In this document: in pieces, positions 1 through 10,692 of the stretch | Position numbering within the stretch: position 1 is the stretch's first letter | Layout of the letters: every line of letters starts with the position of its first letter | Source of the DNA: a virus | Taxonomy: Duplodnaviria; Heunggongvirae; Uroviricota; Caudoviricetes | Strand: one strand, 5' to 3' | Virus record (IMG/VR): IMGVR_UViG_3300014970_000061 | DNA length: 11,110 nucleotides | Notes under the pieces: generated by a model | Told to the model about the DNA's origin: nothing | The model's database searches: none | Seen by the model: only the letters and a program-made list of their open reading frames with translations | Position numbers and translations under genes: made by a program

Positions 1-60
1 ATGCCATTATTATATTTAAACACTAGAGAGTGTCGTTGGTATTTAATGGGGGAAGGTGAG

Positions 61-378
61 ATGAAAAAGATAGCTGCTATATCATTAATTAGTATTTTTA
101 TTATGTCTGGTTGTGCTGTGCATAATGATGAGACAAGTATCGGTAAATTTGGTCTTGCATATAAAAGTAATATTCAGCGTAAACTCGATAATCAATACTA
201 CACCGAAGCCGAAGCTTCTTTAGCCAGGGGCAGAATATCTGGTGCAGAAAATATAGTAAAAAATGATGCAGCCCATTTCTGTGTTACTCAGGGCAAAAAA
301 ATGCAGATAGTTGACCTGAAGACAGAAGGTGCAGGATTACATGGCGTCGCTCGTCTGACATTCAAATGTGGAGAGTGA
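61..378 (+). CDS. Putative lipoprotein (flanking gene, probably outside the prophage)
   Basis: ATG at 61 preceded by GGAAGG (51-56). N-terminus MKKIAAISLISIFIMSGC has a basic n-region, hydrophobic core and lipobox-like MSGC. Lies left of the att core, AT-rich. Start at 61 preferred over the longer ORF-track start at 1. Confidence 0.55.
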   Translation: MKKIAAISLISIFIMSGCAVHNDETSIGKFGLAYKSNIQRKLDNQYYTEAEASLARGRISGAENIVKNDAAHFCVTQGKKMQIVDLKTEGAGLHGVARLTFKCGE

Positions 379-642: not shown

Positions 643-1656
643 TTACTCTACTGTGGACACTGTGTGGACACTCTCGGCTTCAGTACCACCTCTTAGCGGA
701 TTAAGAGAAATGGCGTCCTGAAGGTACTCTGGCGCAAAATGAGCGTAAACCATAGTTTGCTCAATCCGCGTGTGACCTAGTATCCGTTGTAGTGTGATAA
801 TACTTCCTCCATTAATCATGAAATGAGTGGCAAAGCTGTGCCTTAGTGCATGTGTGGCTTGCCCCGTTGGCAAATCCGGTTTTATTGCTTTCATTGTTCG
901 TCTGAAGCGAGGGTAATCAGCATCAGGGAATAAAAAACCTCGTTTGTTATCCGCGATCATTTTGGCAACAGCCTCTGAGATCGGGACGGTGCGTGGTTTG
1001 TTTGTTTTCGTTTTAACAAACGTGACGCGGTTATGGATGATATTTTCTGCTTTCAAACGAGCTGCTTCTCCCCAACGTGCTCCTGTACTCAGGCAAAGAA
1101 TCGCAATCTTTTTATTGTCGCCGTCAAGTGCTGCAAGCAGTAAGGCAATTTCTTCCTGTGTGAGATAGCCTGTTTCTGGTTTTTCCTCCTTAAGCCTCTT
1201 TGTCCCTCTGATAGGGTGCTCACCAAAGAATAACTCCGCTTCAATCAGGGCTGTAAACATGCCGCTAATACATGTTAAATCACGATTGATACTCGAAGGT
1301 TTAATACCCTGACTTCTTCGGGTGGCGCAGTACTGGCTGATAAGGGATTTCGTGATTTGAAATGCGCATGGGTCATTCGTTATTTTTGTGAAGATTTCAA
1401 TTTTTCCAAGATTAGATTTCCCATGCTCTTCGTGTTTACCCTTTAAATCCCACCAGATCTGTGTCAGTTCCGACAGACGTCGTTTGTCTGTTGGTTTTGA
1501 TAGCCATTCTTTATTGTGGTGGTTGTACAACGTGTATTTTTCGAAAGCGACAGCTTCGCTTTTCTTATCAAACTTCCTACGGATGCGTTTTCCGTTACGT
1601 CCAGTAGGGCGGATGTCCACTTCATATCGACCATCATCGAGTTTTTTGATTGCCAT
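643..1656 (-). CDS. int: Tyrosine recombinase, P2-type integrase (337 aa)
   Basis: ORF 643..1656 with ATG at 1656-1654 and GGAGGG 7 nt upstream. C-terminal catalytic region has HALRHSFATHF, LGH and MVYAH (tyrosine nucleophile region), typical of phage integrases. Position next to the att core. Confidence 0.95.
   Translation of the reverse strand: MAIKKLDDGRYEVDIRPTGRNGKRIRRKFDKKSEAVAFEKYTLYNHHNKEWLSKPTDKRRLSELTQIWWDLKGKHEEHGKSNLGKIEIFTKITNDPCAFQITKSLISQYCATRRSQGIKPSSINRDLTCISGMFTALIEAELFFGEHPIRGTKRLKEEKPETGYLTQEEIALLLAALDGDNKKIAILCLSTGARWGEAARLKAENIIHNRVTFVKTKTNKPRTVPISEAVAKMIADNKRGFLFPDADYPRFRRTMKAIKPDLPTGQATHALRHSFATHFMINGGSIITLQRILGHTRIEQTMVYAHFAPEYLQDAISLNPLRGGTEAESVHTVSTVE
652..671. promoter_or_regulatory. 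Direct repeat TGTGGACAC x2 at 11-bp spacing (candidate integrase arm-type binding sites)
   Basis: tgtggacac at 652-660 and 663-671, one helical turn apart, inside the 3' end of int on the int-proximal arm. A one-mismatch copy tgtggtca lies at 494-501 on the other side of the core. Confidence 0.4.
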
Positions 1657-1771: not shown

Positions 1772-2071
1772 TTAACCAGTCTTTTGACCGGAGTGGGGCG
1801 ACGTTGTTTCGTTTTGCCCAAAGTGTGCGAGAGCGGGCGCAATTTGCCCGGCTTCTGGAGCTACCTGATCAGTCATGAACCACAAAGTATATTTAGTAAA
1901 TCTGGGATGTTGTAAGACCTTCATTATGGCTTCAACTCCAGCGTTTTTTGACCGGCTCTCATAGCTCGAAAGTGAGCTGTAGGCTACACCAGTTAATTCA
2001 CTGAATTCTTTACGGTTTAACCTTTCAGATTCACGGATTAGCTTCAACTTCTCCGAAACGTCTATTGACAT
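1772..2071 (-). CDS. C: Immunity repressor C (99 aa)
   Basis: Internal ATG at 2071-2069 gives exactly 99 aa (MSIDVSEKLKLIRESERLNRKEFSELTGVAYSS... contains a helix-turn-helix-like segment). GGAG 5 nt upstream. Divergent from cox and upstream of int as in P2. The ORF-track start at 2143 is rejected. Confidence 0.85.
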   Translation of the reverse strand: MSIDVSEKLKLIRESERLNRKEFSELTGVAYSSLSSYESRSKNAGVEAIMKVLQHPRFTKYTLWFMTDQVAPEAGQIAPALAHFGQNETTSPHSGQKTG

Positions 2072-2192
2072 AATTACTCCGATTGCGTAATTTCTTGCTG
2101 ATAGTGTGAAATATTGTGCTTCTGGAGTTATCCTTTTAGGCAATAATTAGCCATTAGGAGCCATTAGAAGCACTAAGGGAGAATCGTAGCAG
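2072..2192. promoter_or_regulatory. Lysis-lysogeny switch region between C and cox (expected face-to-face Pe/Pc promoters and operators)
   Basis: 121-bp divergent intergenic region. TTGACA at 2065-2070 followed 17 bp later by TAATTT (2088-2093), a possible rightward early promoter. Tandem 10-bp direct repeat tagccattag/gagccattag at 2148-2167. Exact promoter and operator positions are not resolved. Confidence 0.45.
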
Positions 2193-2478: not shown

Positions 2479-2649
2479 ATGAATGAGCCTCGTTGTATTG
2501 CTCAGTTATTGCGTAACGAAAGCCCCAGGGCGATTGACTTCACCATCACCCACGGTAAGGGGCGTAAGGGAATCATTATCCGCACCAAAAAACAGAGTCC
2601 GTTAAAAAAGGCTCTGACCTTTCTGAAAAGCCGGAGGGTCTGGAAATGA
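2479..2649 (+). CDS. Small early-operon protein (P2 orf78-like position), 56 aa
   Basis: ATG at 2479 with AAGGAG 6 nt upstream. The ORF-track start at 2455 is a GTG. Stop overlaps the B start (ATGA at 2646-2649). Confidence 0.55.
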   Translation: MNEPRCIAQLLRNESPRAIDFTITHGKGRKGIIIRTKKQSPLKKALTFLKSRRVWK

Positions 2650-3146
2650 CAGTGATGACGCTCAATCTCGTTGAAAAACAGCCAGCAGCTATGCGCCGGA
2701 TAATTGGTAAGCATCTGGCCGTCCCTCGCTGGCAGGAGACATGCGATTATTATAATCAGATGATGGAACGCGAACGGCTAACGGTTTGCTTTCATGCGCA
2801 GTTAAAACAGCGTCACGCAACGATGCGTTTTGAAGAAATGAACGACGTCGAACGTGAACGGCTGGTTTGTGCAATTGATGAATTGCGTGGGGCATTCTCA
2901 AAACGCCGTCAGGTTGGTGCAAGTGAGTATGCATATATTAGCTTTTTAACTGTCAGTCAGCGCCGTACTTTATTTATGCACGCACGACTGACAGAAAAAG
3001 AATTTAACCAGCCATACTGGCGAATTAATGAAGAATCATGTTACTGGCGTGATGCTTTATTCCGTGCATTACGTGAATTATTCAGCCTGTTTGAGTATGC
3101 ACCGACAATTCTGACGTCGGTAAAACCAGAGCAATATCTGCATTAA
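2646..3146 (+). CDS. B: Replication protein B (helicase-loader-like), 166 aa
   Basis: ATG at 2646 with GGAGGG 7 nt upstream. 166 aa, matching the P2 B length and position between cox and A. Confidence 0.8.
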   Translation: MTVMTLNLVEKQPAAMRRIIGKHLAVPRWQETCDYYNQMMERERLTVCFHAQLKQRHATMRFEEMNDVERERLVCAIDELRGAFSKRRQVGASEYAYISFLTVSQRRTLFMHARLTEKEFNQPYWRINEESCYWRDALFRALRELFSLFEYAPTILTSVKPEQYLH

Positions 3147-3960: not shown

Positions 3961-4232
3961 GTATTCGTATTGAAATTGGCGAACGTTATGTCGTTACCAG
4001 TGACAGCTTTCAGTTTATTCTCCACGAGAAAAAGAGAGCGGAAAGCGGTAAAAACGCCGGTCAGGAATGGCTGGCGGTGGTTGGTTATTACCCGAAATTA
4101 AGCCAGCTCGTTTCCGGCCTGATGCATCACGATATTCTGACCGGAAGCGCAAAGTCTTTTGCTGATTTAAACGCGCAGGTTGAGCAACTCAGCAAGCGTT
4201 GTTCAGAGGCTTTTGGCTCATATGGCCGTTAA
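3957..4232 (+). CDS. Small early-operon protein (P2 orf83-like), 91 aa
   Basis: ATG at 3957, translationally coupled to the upstream gene. 3' end overlaps the A start by 11 nt. Confidence 0.6.
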   Translation: MSIRIEIGERYVVTSDSFQFILHEKKRAESGKNAGQEWLAVVGYYPKLSQLVSGLMHHDILTGSAKSFADLNAQVEQLSKRCSEAFGSYGR

Positions 4233-6507
4233 AGCCTCCGGGCGTTTTGTCCCTCCGTCAGCATTTGCCGCAGGCACCGGTAAGACGTTTACCGGTGCTT
4301 ATGCGTGGAACGCGCCACGCGAGGCTGTCGGGCGCGAAAGACCCCTTACACGTGACGAGATGCGTCAGGTGCAAGGTGTTTTATCCACGATTAACCGCCT
4401 GCCTTACTTTTTGCGCTCGCTGTTTACTTCACGCTATGACTACATCCGGCGCAATAAAAGCCTGGTGCACGGGTTTTATTTCCTCACATCCACTTTTCAG
4501 CGTCGTTTATGGCCGCGCATTGAGCGTGTGAATCAGCGCCATGAAATGAACACCGACGCGTCGTTGCTGTTTCTGGCAGAGCGCGACCAGTATGCGCGCC
4601 TGCCGGGGATGAATGACAAGGAGCTGAAAAAGTTTGCCGCCCGAATCTCATCGCAGCTTTTCATGATGTATGAGGAACTCTGCGATGCCTGGGTGGATGC
4701 GCATGGCGAAAAAGAATCGCTGTTTACGGATGAGGCGCAGGCTCACCTGTATGGTCATGTTGCTGGCGCTGCACGTGCTTTCAATATTTCCCCGCTTTAC
4801 TGGAGAAAATACCGTAAAGGACAGATGACCACGAGGCAGGCATATTCTGCCATTGCCCGTCTGTTTAACGATGAGTGGTGGACTCATCAGCTTAAAGGCC
4901 AGCGTATGCGCTGGCATGAAGCGTTACTGATAGCTGTCGGGGAGGTTAATAAAGACCGCTCACCTTATGCCAGTAAACACGCCATTCGTGATGTGCGTGC
5001 ACGCCGCCAGGCAAATCTGGAATTTCTTAAATCGTGTGACCTTGAAAACAGGGAAACCGGCGAGCGCATCGACCTTATCAGTAAGGTGATGGGCAGTATT
5101 TCTAATCCTGAAATTCGCCGGATGGAGCTGATGAACACCATTGCCGGTATTGAGCGTTACGCTGCCGCAGAGGGTGATGTGGGGATGTTTATCACGCTGA
5201 CCGCGCCGTCAAAGTATCACCCGACACGTCAGGTCGGAAAAGGCGAAAGTAAAACCGTCCAGCTAAATCACGGCTGGAACGATGAGGCATTTAATCCAAA
5301 GGATGCGCAGCGTTATCTCTGCCGTATCTGGAGCCTGATGCGCACGGCATTCAAGGATAATGATTTACAGGTCTACGGTTTGCGTGTCGTCGAGCCACAC
5401 CACGACGGAACGCCGCACTGGCATATGATGCTTTTTTGTAATCCACGCCAGCGTAACCAGATTATCGAAATCATGCGTCGCTATGCGCTCAAAGAGGATG
5501 GTGACGAAAGAGGAGCCGCGCGAAACCGTTTTCAGGCAAAGCACCTTAACCGGGGCGGTGCTGCGGGATATATCGCGAAATACATTTCAAAAAATATCGA
5601 CGGCTATGCACTGGATGGTCAGCTCGATAACGATACCGGTAAGCCGCTTAAAGATACTGCCGCGGCTGTTACCGCATGGGCGTCAACGTGGCGCATCCCG
5701 CAATTTAAAACGGTTGGACTGCCGACAATGGGGGCTTACCGTGAACTACGCAAATTGCCTCGCGGCGTCAGTATTGCTGATGAGTTTGACGAACGCGTCG
5801 AGGCTGCTCGCGCTGCCGCAGACAGTGGTGATTTTGCGTTGTATATCAGCGCGCAGGGTGGGGCAAATGTCCCGCGCGATTGTCAGACTGTCAGGGTTGC
5901 CCGTAGCCCGTCGGATGACGTTAACGAGTACGAGGAAGAAGTCGAGAGAGTGGTCGGCATTTACGCGCCGCATCTCGGCGCGCGTCATATTCATATCACC
6001 AGAACGACGGACTGGCGCATTGTGCCGAAAGTTCCGGTCGTTGAGCCTTTGACTTTAAAAAGCGGCATCGCCGCGCCTCGGAGTCCTGTCAATAACTGTG
6101 GAAAGCTCACCGGCAGTGATACTTCGTTACCGGCTCCCACACCTTATGAACATGCCGCAGCCGTGCTTAATCTGGTTGATGACGGTGTTATCGAATGGAA
6201 TGAGCCAGAGGTCGTGAGGGCGCTCAGAGGTGCATTAAAACACGAACTGAGAACACCAAATCGTCAGCAGAGAAACGGAAGCCCGTTAAAACCACATGAA
6301 ATAGCGCCATCGGCCAGACTGACCCGGTCGGAACGAACGCAAATTACCCGTATCCGCGTTGACCTTGCTCAGAACGGTATCAGGCCGCAGCGATGGGAGC
6401 TTGAGGCGCTGGCGCGTGGCGCGACCGTAAATTATGACGGGAAAAAATTCACGTATCCGGTCGCTGATGAGTGGCCGGGATTCTCAACAGTAATGGAGTG
6501 GACATAA
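4222..6507 (+). CDS. A: Replication initiator A, HUH-superfamily rolling-circle endonuclease (761 aa)
   Basis: Internal ATG at 4222 gives 761 aa, matching P2 A. HUH metal-binding motif in PHWHMMLF. Paired catalytic tyrosines in YIAKYISK, as in phiX174 gpA (YVAKYVNK). In P2 the origin lies within A, but I could not pinpoint it here. Confidence 0.9.
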   Translation: MAVKASGRFVPPSAFAAGTGKTFTGAYAWNAPREAVGRERPLTRDEMRQVQGVLSTINRLPYFLRSLFTSRYDYIRRNKSLVHGFYFLTSTFQRRLWPRIERVNQRHEMNTDASLLFLAERDQYARLPGMNDKELKKFAARISSQLFMMYEELCDAWVDAHGEKESLFTDEAQAHLYGHVAGAARAFNISPLYWRKYRKGQMTTRQAYSAIARLFNDEWWTHQLKGQRMRWHEALLIAVGEVNKDRSPYASKHAIRDVRARRQANLEFLKSCDLENRETGERIDLISKVMGSISNPEIRRMELMNTIAGIERYAAAEGDVGMFITLTAPSKYHPTRQVGKGESKTVQLNHGWNDEAFNPKDAQRYLCRIWSLMRTAFKDNDLQVYGLRVVEPHHDGTPHWHMMLFCNPRQRNQIIEIMRRYALKEDGDERGAARNRFQAKHLNRGGAAGYIAKYISKNIDGYALDGQLDNDTGKPLKDTAAAVTAWASTWRIPQFKTVGLPTMGAYRELRKLPRGVSIADEFDERVEAARAAADSGDFALYISAQGGANVPRDCQTVRVARSPSDDVNEYEEEVERVVGIYAPHLGARHIHITRTTDWRIVPKVPVVEPLTLKSGIAAPRSPVNNCGKLTGSDTSLPAPTPYEHAAAVLNLVDDGVIEWNEPEVVRALRGALKHELRTPNRQQRNGSPLKPHEIAPSARLTRSERTQITRIRVDLAQNGIRPQRWELEALARGATVNYDGKKFTYPVADEWPGFSTVMEWT

Positions 6508-6959
6508 TGGCAAAAATTCACGAGGTAAAGCTGCACGCAAAATATTTCGACCTTGTGCTGGAAGGAAAGAAACGTGCAGAGTTCCGGAAAAATGACCGTA
6601 ATTATGAGCGCGGGGACACGTTGATTTTGTATGAATGGGTGCAGGGTGTGTATACGGGGCGAAATGTTGAAGCCCGGATAACAGATGTTACTGACCTGTC
6701 AGACTGGCTGGAAGATTATGTCTTGCTAAGTATTGAGCTGCTTAATACAGGCGCATATGAGATTGTGAACTGGAAAGAACTTAGTGAGCGTGGCCTGGTA
6801 TTCAGAATTAATCATGAAATTATGCATCAGCTCGGCCTTGCTGTTATGTATGAACCAGAGACGGGGATGTCTGGCGGGGCAATGGTTGCCACGGATGGAG
6901 CATGGAACTATTCAGATGAACAGATGGAGCGTGCACAGCAAAACGGGTGGCTTGGATAA
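6507..6959 (+). CDS. DUF3850/ASCH-like (PUA-fold) protein (P2 orf91-like position), 150 aa
   Basis: ATG at 6507 overlapping the A stop (TAATG). N-terminal KIHEVKLHAKYFDLVLEGKKRAEFRKNDRNYERGDTLILYEW resembles the DUF3850/ASCH motif (RKNDR). Domain call is from memory. Confidence 0.65.
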   Translation: MAKIHEVKLHAKYFDLVLEGKKRAEFRKNDRNYERGDTLILYEWVQGVYTGRNVEARITDVTDLSDWLEDYVLLSIELLNTGAYEIVNWKELSERGLVFRINHEIMHQLGLAVMYEPETGMSGGAMVATDGAWNYSDEQMERAQQNGWLG

Positions 6960-7407: not shown

Positions 7408-8346
7408 ATGCCAACTGTAGTTTCACTTTTTTCTGGATGTGGTGGTTCTGATGCGGGAGTTTTGAACGCAGGTTTCAATGTGCTTATGGCAAATGATATT
7501 TTGCCTTACGCAAGGGACGTTTACTTAGAAAACCATCCTGAAACTGACTACATTTTGGGCGATATCTCAGGGCTCCAGTCGTTCCCTTCTGCTGAGTTGC
7601 TCATCGGATGCTATCCTTGCCAAGGATTTAGTCAAGGTGGGGCAAGGAAGGCAGATAGAAAGATTAATACACTATATTTAGAGTTTGCCCGTGCTTTGAG
7701 TAAAATTAAGCCAAAAGCATTCATTGTAGAGAATGTCTCTGGTATGGTAAGGCGTAACTTTGAGCATTTATTAAAGGATCAATTCAAAGTTTTCGAAGAA
7801 GCAGGTTATACAGTAAGCTCGCAAATTCTGAATGCGTCCCATTATGGGGTATCCCAAGATAGGAAGCGAATCTTTATCGTAGGAATACGAAAGGACTACG
7901 GTATTACATACAAATTTCCAAAACCAACACATGGTGATGGTTTGACACCATATTCCACAATTCGTGATGCTATTGGGCATATGCCTGTTTGGCCTGTTGG
8001 CGAGTTTTATGACGCCGATTTTCATTGGTATTATCTATCGCGAAACCGTAGGCAAGATTGGGATCAGATATCTAAAACAATTGTTGCAAATCCTAGACAT
8101 ATGCCTCTACATCCAATAAGTCCAACATTAGAAAAATTGGGACCTGATAAGTGGCAATTTACTTCGGATGCACCAGCTCGTAGGTTTAGCTATCGAGAGG
8201 CTGCTATTTTACAAGGTTTTGGGGATTTAATTTTCCCAGAAACTGAACGGGCTTCTATTAATATGAAATATACTGTGGTAGGTAATGCAGTACCGCCTCC
8301 ATTGTTTGAGGCGGTTGCTAGAAACCTTCCAGATTTATGGGATTAA
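7408..8346 (+). CDS. DNA (cytosine-5)-methyltransferase, 312 aa
   Basis: Canonical C5-MTase motifs in order: motif I LFSGCGG (AdoMet binding), motif IV GCYPCQGFSQGG (catalytic Cys in PCQ), motif VI ENV (FIVENVSGM), motif VIII QDRKR, C-terminal VVGNAVPPPLFEAV. Small size implies a short target-recognition domain. Confidence 0.92.
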   Translation: MPTVVSLFSGCGGSDAGVLNAGFNVLMANDILPYARDVYLENHPETDYILGDISGLQSFPSAELLIGCYPCQGFSQGGARKADRKINTLYLEFARALSKIKPKAFIVENVSGMVRRNFEHLLKDQFKVFEEAGYTVSSQILNASHYGVSQDRKRIFIVGIRKDYGITYKFPKPTHGDGLTPYSTIRDAIGHMPVWPVGEFYDADFHWYYLSRNRRQDWDQISKTIVANPRHMPLHPISPTLEKLGPDKWQFTSDAPARRFSYREAAILQGFGDLIFPETERASINMKYTVVGNAVPPPLFEAVARNLPDLWD

Positions 8347-9368
8347 GCAGCGATCGCGCTGGAAGGATCAAGGATGATATCTAGATAGCTAATATTTTGA
8401 CTGTGATCAATATTATCAGATGCTCTGGTTAAATTGATTAATCTTAGGCGATCAACAAAAATAGCATCGCCTAACTTATTTTTATGCGCCCACTCACCAT
8501 CTATCCATCGTAGATCTTGAGGTAAGAAATAATAAGTTGCCCATCGGTGAGCTACGGGGAATTTACTGTAGAGCATCGCAGGTGAGGCCTCAAGCTGCTT
8601 CGCTTCCCACTCTTCTTGAGAACAGCCACACTGAACAAAAGAAATAGGGATGGCATCTCGTTGATCTCCCATTGGATGCCAGGCAATTATGTCAAGGCCT
8701 CCGTCACCACTATTTCCTCGACTGAAATCTCGTTCTTTGAAGTTCGCTGTGCAACGGATATCGGAAGCAATACTCTTAAATTTATTATATAGAGTTCCAG
8801 TGTAAGGGGCCGCTTGACCACCAGAAGCCCAGCATGCTTTTATTATGCTACCGCTAGGCATTAGGCTTTCAAAAATAGGTAAACTAATTAGTTCAAAACT
8901 GCGCGTTATCTCTCTTCTGCTCATTATGTTGACATATTTTATGTTAGCACAGATTAGTAAAGCTAAATATAGTCTTTCTAAATGTTCCAGTGGCTTTTCT
9001 GATATATCACGTAACTCTACAGTATCGTTGTCTTCTGATAAAGTAAAAGGGTAACTATCCCCAAATAAATCAATGCGTTGTCGTATGAAGCCTATCGCAT
9101 AGCTCCACTTTCTGTCAGTATATGCTCGACTAACACTTCGTTTTGTTCTCTTGCGTACAGGCGTATCATTTTCATCATCAACATCATAAACGCCCTCTTC
9201 TTCTGCTTCATCTGTTTCAGCTAGTACTGCTTCGGGTTGAGCTTGCAGTGTGCTATATAGGTCTCCTCGACTGAATGACCTGTCGATATTAGTTAAGGCC
9301 AATATCTCAATATAATCAGCCCATAAATAAGGCTCATTAGAAGGCATTGAATCAAGATTTGTAATCAT
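8343..9368 (-). CDS. Uncharacterized protein with a possible Mrr-like PD-(D/E)xK nuclease signature, about 341 aa (start uncertain)
   Basis: Long minus-strand ORF whose stop overlaps the MTase stop (TTAA at 8343-8346). GDGGLDIIAW followed about 20 aa later by FVQCGCSQEEWEAK resembles the GDGGID ... (V/I)QxK core of Mrr-type nucleases, but with Gly where the Lys is expected. Acidic then basic linker (ETDEAEEEGVYDVDDENDTP / VRKRTKRSVSR). In-frame starts at 9452, 9380 and 9368; 9368 chosen because GGAGG lies 12 nt upstream and it sits 4 nt after the upstream stop. Confidence 0.7.
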   Translation of the reverse strand: MITNLDSMPSNEPYLWADYIEILALTNIDRSFSRGDLYSTLQAQPEAVLAETDEAEEEGVYDVDDENDTPVRKRTKRSVSRAYTDRKWSYAIGFIRQRIDLFGDSYPFTLSEDNDTVELRDISEKPLEHLERLYLALLICANIKYVNIMSRREITRSFELISLPIFESLMPSGSIIKACWASGGQAAPYTGTLYNKFKSIASDIRCTANFKERDFSRGNSGDGGLDIIAWHPMGDQRDAIPISFVQCGCSQEEWEAKQLEASPAMLYSKFPVAHRWATYYFLPQDLRWIDGEWAHKNKLGDAIFVDRLRLINLTRASDNIDHSQNISYLDIILDPSSAIAA

Positions 9369-9372
9369 AATC

Positions 9373-10446
9373 TCAATCATCCTCCCTTTTGCTTCTGATC
9401 TGATTTCTAATATTTTTTGACATCTCAAAAATTTCAGATGCAGCCTCTTCATGCTCTAATGTTAATTCTTTAGCTTTAAGTAGCATATCCCAAACTACTC
9501 TTAATTTAACACTAGCTGCGTTTAGTGCTTTATCTAATGCTTCTCTTTCTCCGCTGGTATATAGATATGCTTCATCCAAGTTTGAACTTTTCATGAGAAT
9601 TTCAATTGCTTCGGGTTTCTCAACCACTGCTGCAATATCTTTTATTCTTCGAGACTCACCGATGATGGTTCTACCTTGTTGGTCAGGCACAAAAAACCAA
9701 GAGAATAAACGCTTAAGGTTTTCTTCATTTAAATTTGGGTCTAAAAAATCCTTTTTATCCTGTAGACCTAACCAGTTTGTGATTTTTGAATATCCCAAAG
9801 CTGTGGTTATATATGAAAATTCCACGTCAGAAGCCTTCATGGGTAAATTAAAAAACTCATGGTCATGCGCGACTTCATATAAGTTCAGTGCAGTGAGAAG
9901 TGTTGCAACATAATGTGGTTTACTCCCAATCTCACGAGCCAGATTTTTTAATACTATCTCTTTAGGCTCATGTGAATAAAAAGTATCACATAACTCTTTA
10001 AGGTATTTGGCTTTAGATAATGAGTCCCATTCTTTGACCCCAGTTATATGACGATAACCGATATATCTCAGTACATCCTCTCGGTTTTCATAAATGATGC
10101 AGGGAAGCTTCTTAGGTTTATTGGTAGTATCATCAATGATTTCTTGCACACCTTTAAGTTTTCTTTTTGGAGGAAGCAGATCTCCATTGAGCAACTTTAC
10201 AGCAGCTAAGCGTCTGTTTCCCTCAACCACGATGTAGTTTCCATTGCTTTTTACTGCCAATAAAGGTTCTCCAGGAAAGTAACCTTGCTGACCGATTGAT
10301 AGCATTAGATCGTGGACACTTTCGTCATCTAACATTTCCTCAATGACTGTTGCAGCGTTACTGGCATCATTGAGACGAAAGAAACGTGGGTTTTTAGGGT
10401 CAAAATCAAGCTTATTTGTCTCAATTTCTACGATTTTGTTATCCAT
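9373..10446 (-). CDS. ParB/Srx-superfamily (ParB N-terminal domain) protein, 357 aa from the ATG at 10446
   Basis: N-terminus MDNKIVEIETNKLDFDPKNPRFF ... LMLSIGQQGYFPGEPLLAVKSNGNYIVVEGNRRLAAVKLL parallels the ParB N-terminal domain (I..L..P.NPR box and GxRRxxA arginine patch). GAGG 5 nt upstream of the ATG at 10446. Longer ORF-track start at 10578 lacks an RBS. C-terminal 250 aa has no motif I recognise. Confidence 0.8.
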   Translation of the reverse strand: MDNKIVEIETNKLDFDPKNPRFFRLNDASNAATVIEEMLDDESVHDLMLSIGQQGYFPGEPLLAVKSNGNYIVVEGNRRLAAVKLLNGDLLPPKRKLKGVQEIIDDTTNKPKKLPCIIYENREDVLRYIGYRHITGVKEWDSLSKAKYLKELCDTFYSHEPKEIVLKNLAREIGSKPHYVATLLTALNLYEVAHDHEFFNLPMKASDVEFSYITTALGYSKITNWLGLQDKKDFLDPNLNEENLKRLFSWFFVPDQQGRTIIGESRRIKDIAAVVEKPEAIEILMKSSNLDEAYLYTSGEREALDKALNAASVKLRVVWDMLLKAKELTLEHEEAASEIFEMSKNIRNQIRSKREDD

Positions 10447-10673
10447 CTTAACCTCATGGGATGATGTAAATATCTTTTGGGGGATGCTTGATAAAACATC
10501 CATATTTGATCGTTTGCAGCGCATTTGATACATCGAAGTGTACAAAAATGCTGGGCATAACTCTGCATTAAAATGCATTCACATTCAAAGAACTATTTTC
10601 TCGTTGGACATTTAGCCCAAGAGAGTTTGGACGGCTTTTGGAATTGCATCAAAACCGACCCATGAAGCGGGCG

Positions 10674-10692
10674 GGCGAGGCGGGGAAAGCAC
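10674..10692. other. Phage cohesive-end site (cos), ggcgaggcggggaaagcac
   Basis: 19-nt sequence matches my recollection of the P2 cohesive end. GC-rich, and located between the last right-arm gene and the first late gene, as expected in a prophage. Confidence 0.65.

Follow-up and report, generated by a model that had tools for sequence, protein, structure and literature searches.

A ParB-like protein, a probable PD-(D/E)xK nuclease and a C5 DNA methyltransferase form a candidate restriction-modification-like anti-phage cassette at the tin/old locus of a P2-like prophage

The stretch of DNA analysed here (IMG/VR record IMGVR_UViG_3300014970_000061, 11,110 nucleotides [nt]; hereafter the window) is the early/replication arm of a P2-like prophage, according to the map of its open reading frames (ORFs) and to profile matches. 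It carries three adjacent cargo genes: a ParB-like gene of 357 amino acids (aa) on the minus strand (9373..10446), a gene for a probable nuclease behind it on the same strand (8343..9380; hereafter the partner gene), and a gene for a C5 DNA cytosine methyltransferase on the plus strand (7408..8346). An earlier note on this DNA had described the ParB-like protein as a stand-alone protein in a defence context, encoded immediately upstream of a nuclease-like gene; the downstream neighbour and the context are borne out below, whereas the protein turned out to be part of a three-gene module with the nuclease-like and the C5 methyltransferase genes.

The mechanically called ORF of the ParB-like gene (9373..10578, minus strand) comprises 401 aa, but the ATG at 10446 is the better start, since a GAGG ribosome-binding site read from the sequence 5 nt upstream (10452..10455, minus strand), the N-termini of the homologues and the RefSeq entry WP_000368931.1 (357 aa) all agree with it; the previously given length of 357 aa thus stands. 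The ParB/Srx N-terminal domain is followed by a ParB-type helix-turn-helix (HTH) DNA-binding domain (aa ~142-195; 9862..10023, minus strand), located by structure match, family profile and hhalign, and by an all-helical C-terminal domain (aa 196-357; 9376..9861, minus strand) that closes with two long helices (aa 300-324 and 330-356) in the predicted model. The C-terminal 250 residues had formerly been left unassigned; this remains correct for aa 196-357, for which no significant family or fold assignment was obtained, but not for the part that forms the HTH. Judged by the predicted model, dimerisation or partner binding would be possible roles of the C-terminal helical domain.

Conservation in the ParB-like protein was assessed with 62 relatives at 30-55% identity, and both sequence motifs named in the earlier note, the NPR box and the GxRR patch, were found at their places in the translation and conserved in these relatives. 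The box I-like motif FDPKNPRF (aa 15-22; 10381..10404, minus strand), which aligns with LRPNPYQPR of Spo0J, contains the invariant residues D16 and R21, with N19 and P20 present in at least 90% of the sequences. The box II or phosphate-binding motif VVEGNRRLAAVKLL (aa 73-86; 10189..10230, minus strand) includes the GNRR patch at aa 76-79, of which G76, N77 and R79 are invariant and R78 is kept in at least 90%. At the position where ParB proteins have box III (ENLQRE), the family possesses a motif of its own, GYRHITG (aa 130-136; 10039..10059, minus strand), with G130, R132, H133 and G136 invariant; it is also kept in PD-lambda-5_A-like proteins. Together with I51, E60, W140 and K145, all invariant residues belong to the ParB/Srx domain at the N-terminus or to the beginning of the HTH, and the C-terminal half has none. 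Such a distribution is the pattern that would be expected of a working nucleoside triphosphate (NTP) site.

Single-model matches to ParB were weak: Pfam ParB_N (PF02195) gave E=0.021 and 15.3 bits (cutoff 26.3), and TIGR00180 gave E=2.8e-7 with a score of 30.5 (cutoff 58.45). In consequence, an assignment to ParB by eye, as proposed before, would not have been safe by itself. The ParB fold of the N-terminus was nevertheless confirmed by more sensitive comparisons. A profile built from the 62 family sequences matched the ParB of Helicobacter pylori (4umk) with E=4.6e-4 over the GxRR helix, and that of Caulobacter as well, aligning VVEGNRRLAAVKLL with GERRLRA of both proteins; the same profile weakly matched the ParB HTH (LAkeIGsrsdyVarlL versus IAQTIGKSRSHVANTM). 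With hhalign, Bacillus subtilis Spo0J was aligned over residues 7-202 with a probability of 93.4% and E=2.5e-7, including box I, box II and the HTH; box III was left unaligned, and the family has an invariant GYRHxxG...W instead. The top structural match was KorB, a transcriptional repressor. In contrast, the suggested likeness to DndB and to the DUF262 NTPases was not supported, as neither PF03235 (DUF262) nor DndB profiles matched at E<=0.1 and the DGQ(H/Q)R motif is replaced by EGNRR; membership in these families was therefore rejected, and the protein has more in common with canonical ParB/KorB and with PD-lambda-5_A.

Binding of a nucleotide by the ParB-like protein appears likely from its conserved motifs. 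That the arginine patch would imply binding of cytidine triphosphate (CTP), as in partition ParB proteins, cannot be assumed, because box III is not kept and the second residue of GxRR is an asparagine as in ToxB. According to a recent preprint, the latter has the ParB fold, carries GNHR at the corresponding positions, and uses ATP, not CTP, for binding and hydrolysis (10.64898/2026.05.05.722872).

The partner gene is annotated with 345 aa; its start is more likely the ATG at 9368 (341 aa), 4 nt past the stop codon of the ParB-like gene, and the two genes are translationally coupled. Its product found no match in Pfam, NCBIfam or PADLOC. The predicted model (predicted local distance difference test, pLDDT, 90.7; predicted template modelling score, pTM, 0.90) shows a probable PD-(D/E)xK nuclease whose N-terminal part is helical or of the winged-helix type; in fold comparisons it matched type II and nicking endonucleases best, several enzymes of the CCGG family among them, with fold-match figures of 7.7 for N.BspD6I, 7.4 for NgoMIV, 6.5 for MspJI and 6.2 for SdaI, followed by NucS, Bse634I and Cfr10I. 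Restriction enzymes also ranked first when the model was compared with the PDB by Foldseek, none of them significantly (best E 0.26).

Based on 74 diverse partner proteins (20-47% identity), the residues D22, E25, R102, E163, G225, D226, D230, Q250, K261, D310 and R311 are invariant or nearly so. They include the GDGGLD motif (aa 225-230; 8691..8708, minus strand, from the translation), with G225 and D230 in all 74 sequences and D226 in 72, the segment QCGCSQEEWEAKQLE (aa 250-264; 8589..8633, minus strand), with Q250 and K261 in 73 each, and E163 on the preceding helix (8892-8894, minus strand; 71 of 74). Enzymes of the Cfr10I/NgoMIV type have a relocated catalytic motif, and by analogy with them the active site may be read as E163, D230, Q250 and K261, E264 being a further candidate.

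The third gene encodes a C5 methyltransferase of 312 aa (Pfam DNA_methylase, PF00145, 9.9e-62) with intact catalytic motifs I, IV, VI and X: FxGxGG (aa 8), PCQ (aa 70), ENV (aa 108) and GN (aa 292). Its best solved relative is M.HaeIII, matched over the full length with E=1.6e-48. The gene is convergent with the partner gene, and the 3' ends of both overlap by 4 nt.

The order of ParB-like, partner and C5 methyltransferase genes recurs in P2-like prophages of Citrobacter, in the chromosomes of Methylomonas (with a vsr fragment nearby), Methylotenera and Dechloromonas, and in Pseudomonas phage D14A (39% identity) and coliphage vB_EcoM-12474 (32%). A scan with one genome per species revealed relatives of the ParB-like protein in at least 585 genomes; the family comprises 550 clusters at 50% identity with E<=1e-30. 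Eighty loci were kept, the neighbouring genes of which were typed by our own ORF calling and searches with hidden Markov models. They span Proteobacteria, Firmicutes, Bacteroidota, Verrucomicrobiota, Chloroflexota, Actinobacteria, Acidobacteriota, Nitrospirota and Campylobacterota. The partner gene directly follows the ParB-like gene in 73 of the 74 loci with room for it, and in 54 of 73 loci a C5 methyltransferase gene is an immediate neighbour, the gene ends frequently overlapping (convergent in 26, co-directional downstream in 21, upstream in 7); eleven further loci have one elsewhere within 5 kb.

Other modification genes occur in the remaining neighbourhoods. Three loci that form one sub-clade (Enterobacteriaceae LSJC7, Vibrio fluminensis, Marinobacterium) face DndD-like (SMC_N/AAA_23) and DndC-like (PAPS_reduct) genes in convergent orientation and lack a C5 methylase gene in their vicinity; this sub-clade of the ParB-nuclease pair may represent a restriction partner for phosphorothioate modification. 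Another three loci adjoin complete HaeIII-, NaeI- or NotI-type systems. The pair of ParB-like and partner genes thus travels with DNA-modification modules, and only a few loci show no modification gene in view. In four loci of Burkholderiales/Rhizobium, a protein of about 1,040 aa with an N6-adenine methylase domain is encoded between the nuclease and the C5 methylase genes; this protein could be either an enzyme resembling type IIG or a fourth component.

Sequence identities of the ParB-like and the partner proteins are tightly correlated across the loci (r=0.84); the correlation with the methyltransferase amounts to 0.37-0.44, the latter protein being much more conserved. Comparison of the window with phage vB_EcoM-12474III, which carries its cassette in the same P2 hotspot, gave an identity of 98% (aa) and 93% (nt) for the methylase but of 34% for the ParB-like protein and 26% for the nuclease, and gives the impression that the restriction half has been exchanged as a module while the methylase stayed the same. 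Based on this contrast and the correlation, the ParB-nuclease pair behaves as one evolutionary unit that is exchangeable against a constant methylase. Natural disruptions were present in three Escherichia coli genomes, by IS5 in two cases (apparently at the same site) and by a broken reading frame in one (JXZ9A32M, FXCREC123 and M25631H); all are confined to the nuclease gene, with intact methylase and ParB-like genes, and therefore provide indirect support for a restriction-modification (RM) logic.

One of the closest known defence systems is PD-lambda-5: the PADLOC profile PD-Lambda-5_A matched aa 1-151 of the ParB-like protein with E=2.5e-24. The discoverers of this E. coli ECOR7 system gave its content as "ParB/HEPN, methyltransferase"; protection extended to almost every phage tested and was strongest for T-even phages, cloning needed an mrr-deleted host, and the authors read the system as a compacted RM and abortive infection system (Vassallo et al. 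2022). Both systems share the homologous ParB module with a common NPR, EGNRR, RH and W signature, and PD-lambda-5, too, resides on prophages and is always accompanied by a DNA methyltransferase. The effector of PD-lambda-5, however, is a HEPN-type C-terminal domain, mostly fused and encoded by a separate gene in Vibrio phage ValB1MD-2, whereas the window has a separate PD-(D/E)xK-like effector without PADLOC match and a C5-cytosine methylase. Membership in PD-lambda-5 was consequently rejected on two grounds: only 151 of the 357 residues match profiles of 440-500 positions that true members match over their whole length, and the methylase is of the C5 class (PF00145), whereas bona fide loci (Marinobacter phage AS1, ValB1MD-2) carry a D12-class N6-adenine methylase (PF02086). 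PD-Lambda-5_B was absent among the best 25 of the 63 PADLOC families matched by the methylase of the window. The PADLOC candidate PDC-M38 was also discarded, as aa 41-327 of the ParB-like protein matched PDC-M38A (E=6.5e-25) at positions 58-342 only of its 715.

A functional analogue is found in AbiR of the Lactococcus lactis plasmid pKR223, which includes the ParB-like AbiRii and AbiRiii with a restriction-endonuclease domain, needs the LlaKR2I methylase of the neighbouring RM system and is toxic without it (Twomey 2000, Yang 2006, via PMC13064643). The methylase-dependent cooperation of a ParB-like protein with a nuclease recalls the three loci beside complete type II systems. AbiR differs in its make-up of three proteins, one of them sigma-70-like and another a nuclease fused to an SF2/Snf2 helicase; homology was rejected, since a tblastn search of a plasmid collection gave no lactococcal match and the cassette has no helicase or sigma-like gene. 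Classical type II RM systems of the HaeIII, NgoMIV and Cfr10I type resemble the cassette in the convergent pair of methylase and endonuclease genes, the M.HaeIII-like methylase and the fold matches of the partner, but have no third, ParB-like protein that is obligatorily inherited with them and contains an NTP pocket. A literature search yielded no description of the triad of ParB-like protein, nuclease and C5 methylase, of PDC-M38 or of ParB-type proteins in restriction, and neither Rousset 2022 nor the 2026 P2/P4 survey mentions the triad.

The remaining genes of the window, assigned by the ORF map and profile matches, place the cassette within the prophage. Integrase (643-1656, minus strand) and a C-type repressor (1772-2143, minus strand) are followed on the plus strand by Cox (2193-2468), a gene B-like ORF (2646-3146), replication protein A (Phage_GPA; 4180-6507) and an ASCH/DUF3850 gene similar to orf91 (6471-6959); rightward of the latter lie the three cargo genes and then the cos region and the end of the portal gene Q. 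The sequence GGCGAGGCGGGGAAAGCAC at 10674-10692, between the ParB-like and the portal genes, is presumably the 19-nt cohesive-end (cos) sequence of P2; about 230 nt around it are conserved in two other P2-type prophages, and the cargo would therefore begin directly after cos. Located between gene A/orf91 and cos/portal Q, the cargo occupies the tin/old locus of a P2/Wphi-like prophage, which has been documented in P2-like phages as a hotspot for anti-phage cargo (PMC9122126; PMC9519451), and the defence context of the ParB-like gene is hence supported. In P2-type loci, the ParB-like, nuclease-like and C5 methylase genes are the entire cargo of the hotspot. The cargo stretch was retrieved with 99.9-100% identity from 104 of 5,426 complete E. 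coli genomes, among them SMS-3-5 and strain W, and a divergent version of the cassette with a 93% nt-identical methylase gene from 36 further ones. In phage Wphi, the genes of the cassette are named gp98, gp96 and mth, and its ParB-like protein is 100% identical to that of the window. RefSeq labels the products in SMS-3-5 as "ParB N-terminal domain-containing protein" (357 aa), "hypothetical protein" (345 aa) and "DNA cytosine methyltransferase"; PHROGs lists the ParB-like and nuclease-like genes under "unknown function".

Some further observations concern the borders of the hotspot and of the prophage. The orf91-like protein at the hotspot border combines ASCH/DUF3850 and DUF7415 domains according to the profile search; ASCH domains are RNA-binding-like. 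In Yersinia phage L-413C, a ParB-like ORF of 330 aa (207-1199) that overlaps orf91 stands alone at the hotspot, without nuclease or methylase gene, and is probably a deletion remnant. Outside the prophage integrase, an ORF that starts at the first base of the window (1-378, plus strand, 125 aa) contains MKKIAAISLISIFIMSGCAV, a lipoprotein-type signal sequence. As the same prophage type adjoins cpxP in SMS-3-5, the integration site in the window may differ from that in SMS-3-5. The palindrome ATGCATTTTAATGCA at 10561-10590, about 115-130 nt upstream of the ParB-like start, has similar ATGCA...TGCAT counterparts upstream of two other P2-type cassettes (Citrobacter, phage 12474) and could be a promoter or operator of the P2 context; as a parS-like site or operator of the ParB-like protein it was not used as evidence, nothing in common having been found across the 83 upstream regions of the family.

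We regard it as fairly probable that the ParB-like protein is the DNA-binding, nucleotide-switch subunit of a three-gene, RM-like anti-phage cassette carried as tin/old cargo. According to this proposal, the C5 methyltransferase would mark the DNA of host and prophage, and the mark would protect it; the ParB-like protein would bind DNA through its ParB-type HTH, and its NTP pocket (NPR, GNRR, GYRH) would serve as the switch by which it governs the co-evolving PD-(D/E)xK nuclease, presumably within a complex of both proteins, and licenses cleavage, so that DNA without the mark would be cut and self DNA spared. The nucleotide-gated clamp or sensor envisaged by the earlier note as licensing the nuclease would be a plausible form of it. 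A tightly gated rather than constitutively active nuclease is suggested by the conservation of the candidate catalytic residues in loci without a methylase in view, and by the fusion of the same ParB module to a different effector in PD-lambda-5; a switch of the ParB type would supply such gating.

Several features weigh against this interpretation. Eight of the 73 loci have no C5 methyltransferase gene within 5 kb, yet the candidate catalytic residues of the partner are almost universally kept, so the ParB-partner pair may not strictly need a linked methylase. Two loci are situated among type IV enzymes (GmrSD with Mrr, and an AspBHI-like gene), which would also fit a modification-dependent enzyme or plain clustering in defence islands. 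The absence of box III and the exchange of E for N in the GxRR motif mean that NTP hydrolysis, CTP specificity and clamp closure cannot be taken for granted, and no parS-like palindrome is common to the 83 upstream regions of the family. A more far-reaching version of the proposal is tentative and on balance doubtful: the protein would be a ParB-family, NTP-gated closing or sliding clamp, like ParB and KorB, that serves a phylum-spanning class of restriction systems as a scanner of self and non-self, reads the absence of a mark and licenses interchangeable effectors. In this version, the mark would be C5 methylation in most systems and possibly phosphorothioate or N6 methylation in others, the effector PD-(D/E)xK here and HEPN in PD-lambda-5.

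An alternative role as a transcriptional controller, either a large analogue of C proteins or a KorB-like repressor that delays or limits expression of the nuclease and has no share in sensing or cutting DNA, is suggested by the HTH, by the position of the gene just upstream of and nearly abutting the nuclease gene, as is the case for C genes, by KorB as top structural match and by the palindrome described above. We consider it improbable, since the palindrome has no counterpart common to the family, the invariant residues cluster in the nucleotide pocket and not in the HTH, the co-evolution with the nuclease is tight, and the fusion of the PD-lambda-5 module to an HEPN effector is more readily reconciled with gating of an effector than with gene regulation. 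Alternatively, the ParB-like protein and the nuclease could be a split analogue of GmrSD, that is, a modification-dependent, type IV-like enzyme with the methylase separate or merely compatible. Indeed, ParB-DUF262 sensors such as GmrSD/BrxU, SspE, DndB and Menshen NsnA also couple a ParB-superfamily NTPase and a DNA-binding helical domain to a nuclease and use the modification status as the discriminating signal (PMC12065111), and the architecture of an NTPase of this superfamily with a nuclease is that of GmrSD/SspE (PMC12065111; PMC12373910). Some loci without methylase adjoin GmrSD, Mrr or AspBHI-like genes. Enzymes of the MspJI type, moreover, often adjoin a C5 methylase too. However, those sensors attack modified DNA or read phosphorothioate, whereas the cassette of the window is linked to its own C5 methylase, which lies directly adjacent in most loci, often with overlapping ends; the DUF262 signature is missing from the ParB-like protein, the three genes make up the whole cargo in the P2 hotspots, and the methylase of PD-lambda-5 and AbiR belongs to the system or averts its toxicity. 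All in all, a type IV-like enzyme seems quite improbable.

A reversal of roles, in which the ParB/Srx domain would act as effector, either as a nickase or as a toxin that consumes NTP in the manner of Osa or ToxB, and the partner as DNA-recognition or regulatory subunit, would be in line with the existence of ParB/Srx members that have nuclease or ATPase-toxin activity (ToxB; Osa and RK2 ParB as cited in PMC12839542) and with the pocket being the most conserved part of the ParB-like protein. Since the partner appears to keep the full invariant set of acidic residues and lysine that is typical of an active PD-(D/E)xK enzyme, the natural knock-outs hit the partner gene and not the ParB-like gene, and PD-lambda-5 pairs the module with a separate effector domain, such a reversal strikes us as very improbable. 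Finally, an ordinary partition ParB or the leftover of a partition system could be supposed from the ParB fold, the HTH and the database name of some relatives ('ParB/RepB/Spo0J family partition protein'). The protein shares with the CTP-dependent sliding clamps ParB/Spo0J, Noc and KorB the ParB/Srx fold, box I with NPR, GxRR and the following ParB-type HTH, but deviates from them by GYRHITG in place of box III, GNRR in place of GERR, another C-terminal domain and scores below the curated ParB cutoffs; no parS was identified. No ParA gene occurs in the window or in the related loci examined, P2 integrates into the chromosome and does not partition, and the gene is consistently linked to nuclease and methylase genes. 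A function in partition was rejected on account of the missing ParA gene and the integrating host phage, and an origin from a partition system deserves hardly any credence.

The cassette is thus plausibly a widespread, unnamed, methylase-linked ParB-module defence system with a PD-(D/E)xK effector and a relative of known anti-phage systems. The assignment supplies the missing annotation for a common cargo of the P2 hotspot and offers a candidate explanation for the exclusion of phages or plasmids by Wphi-type lysogens. Gating of the nuclease by the ParB-like protein, if true, would join restriction to the CTP/NTP-switch biology known from ParB and KorB and would provide a mechanistic handle on PD-lambda-5 and AbiR. 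Should the scanning clamp prove true in addition, restriction would be performed here by an NTP-gated clamp, and not by ATP-driven translocation or simple binding to a site.

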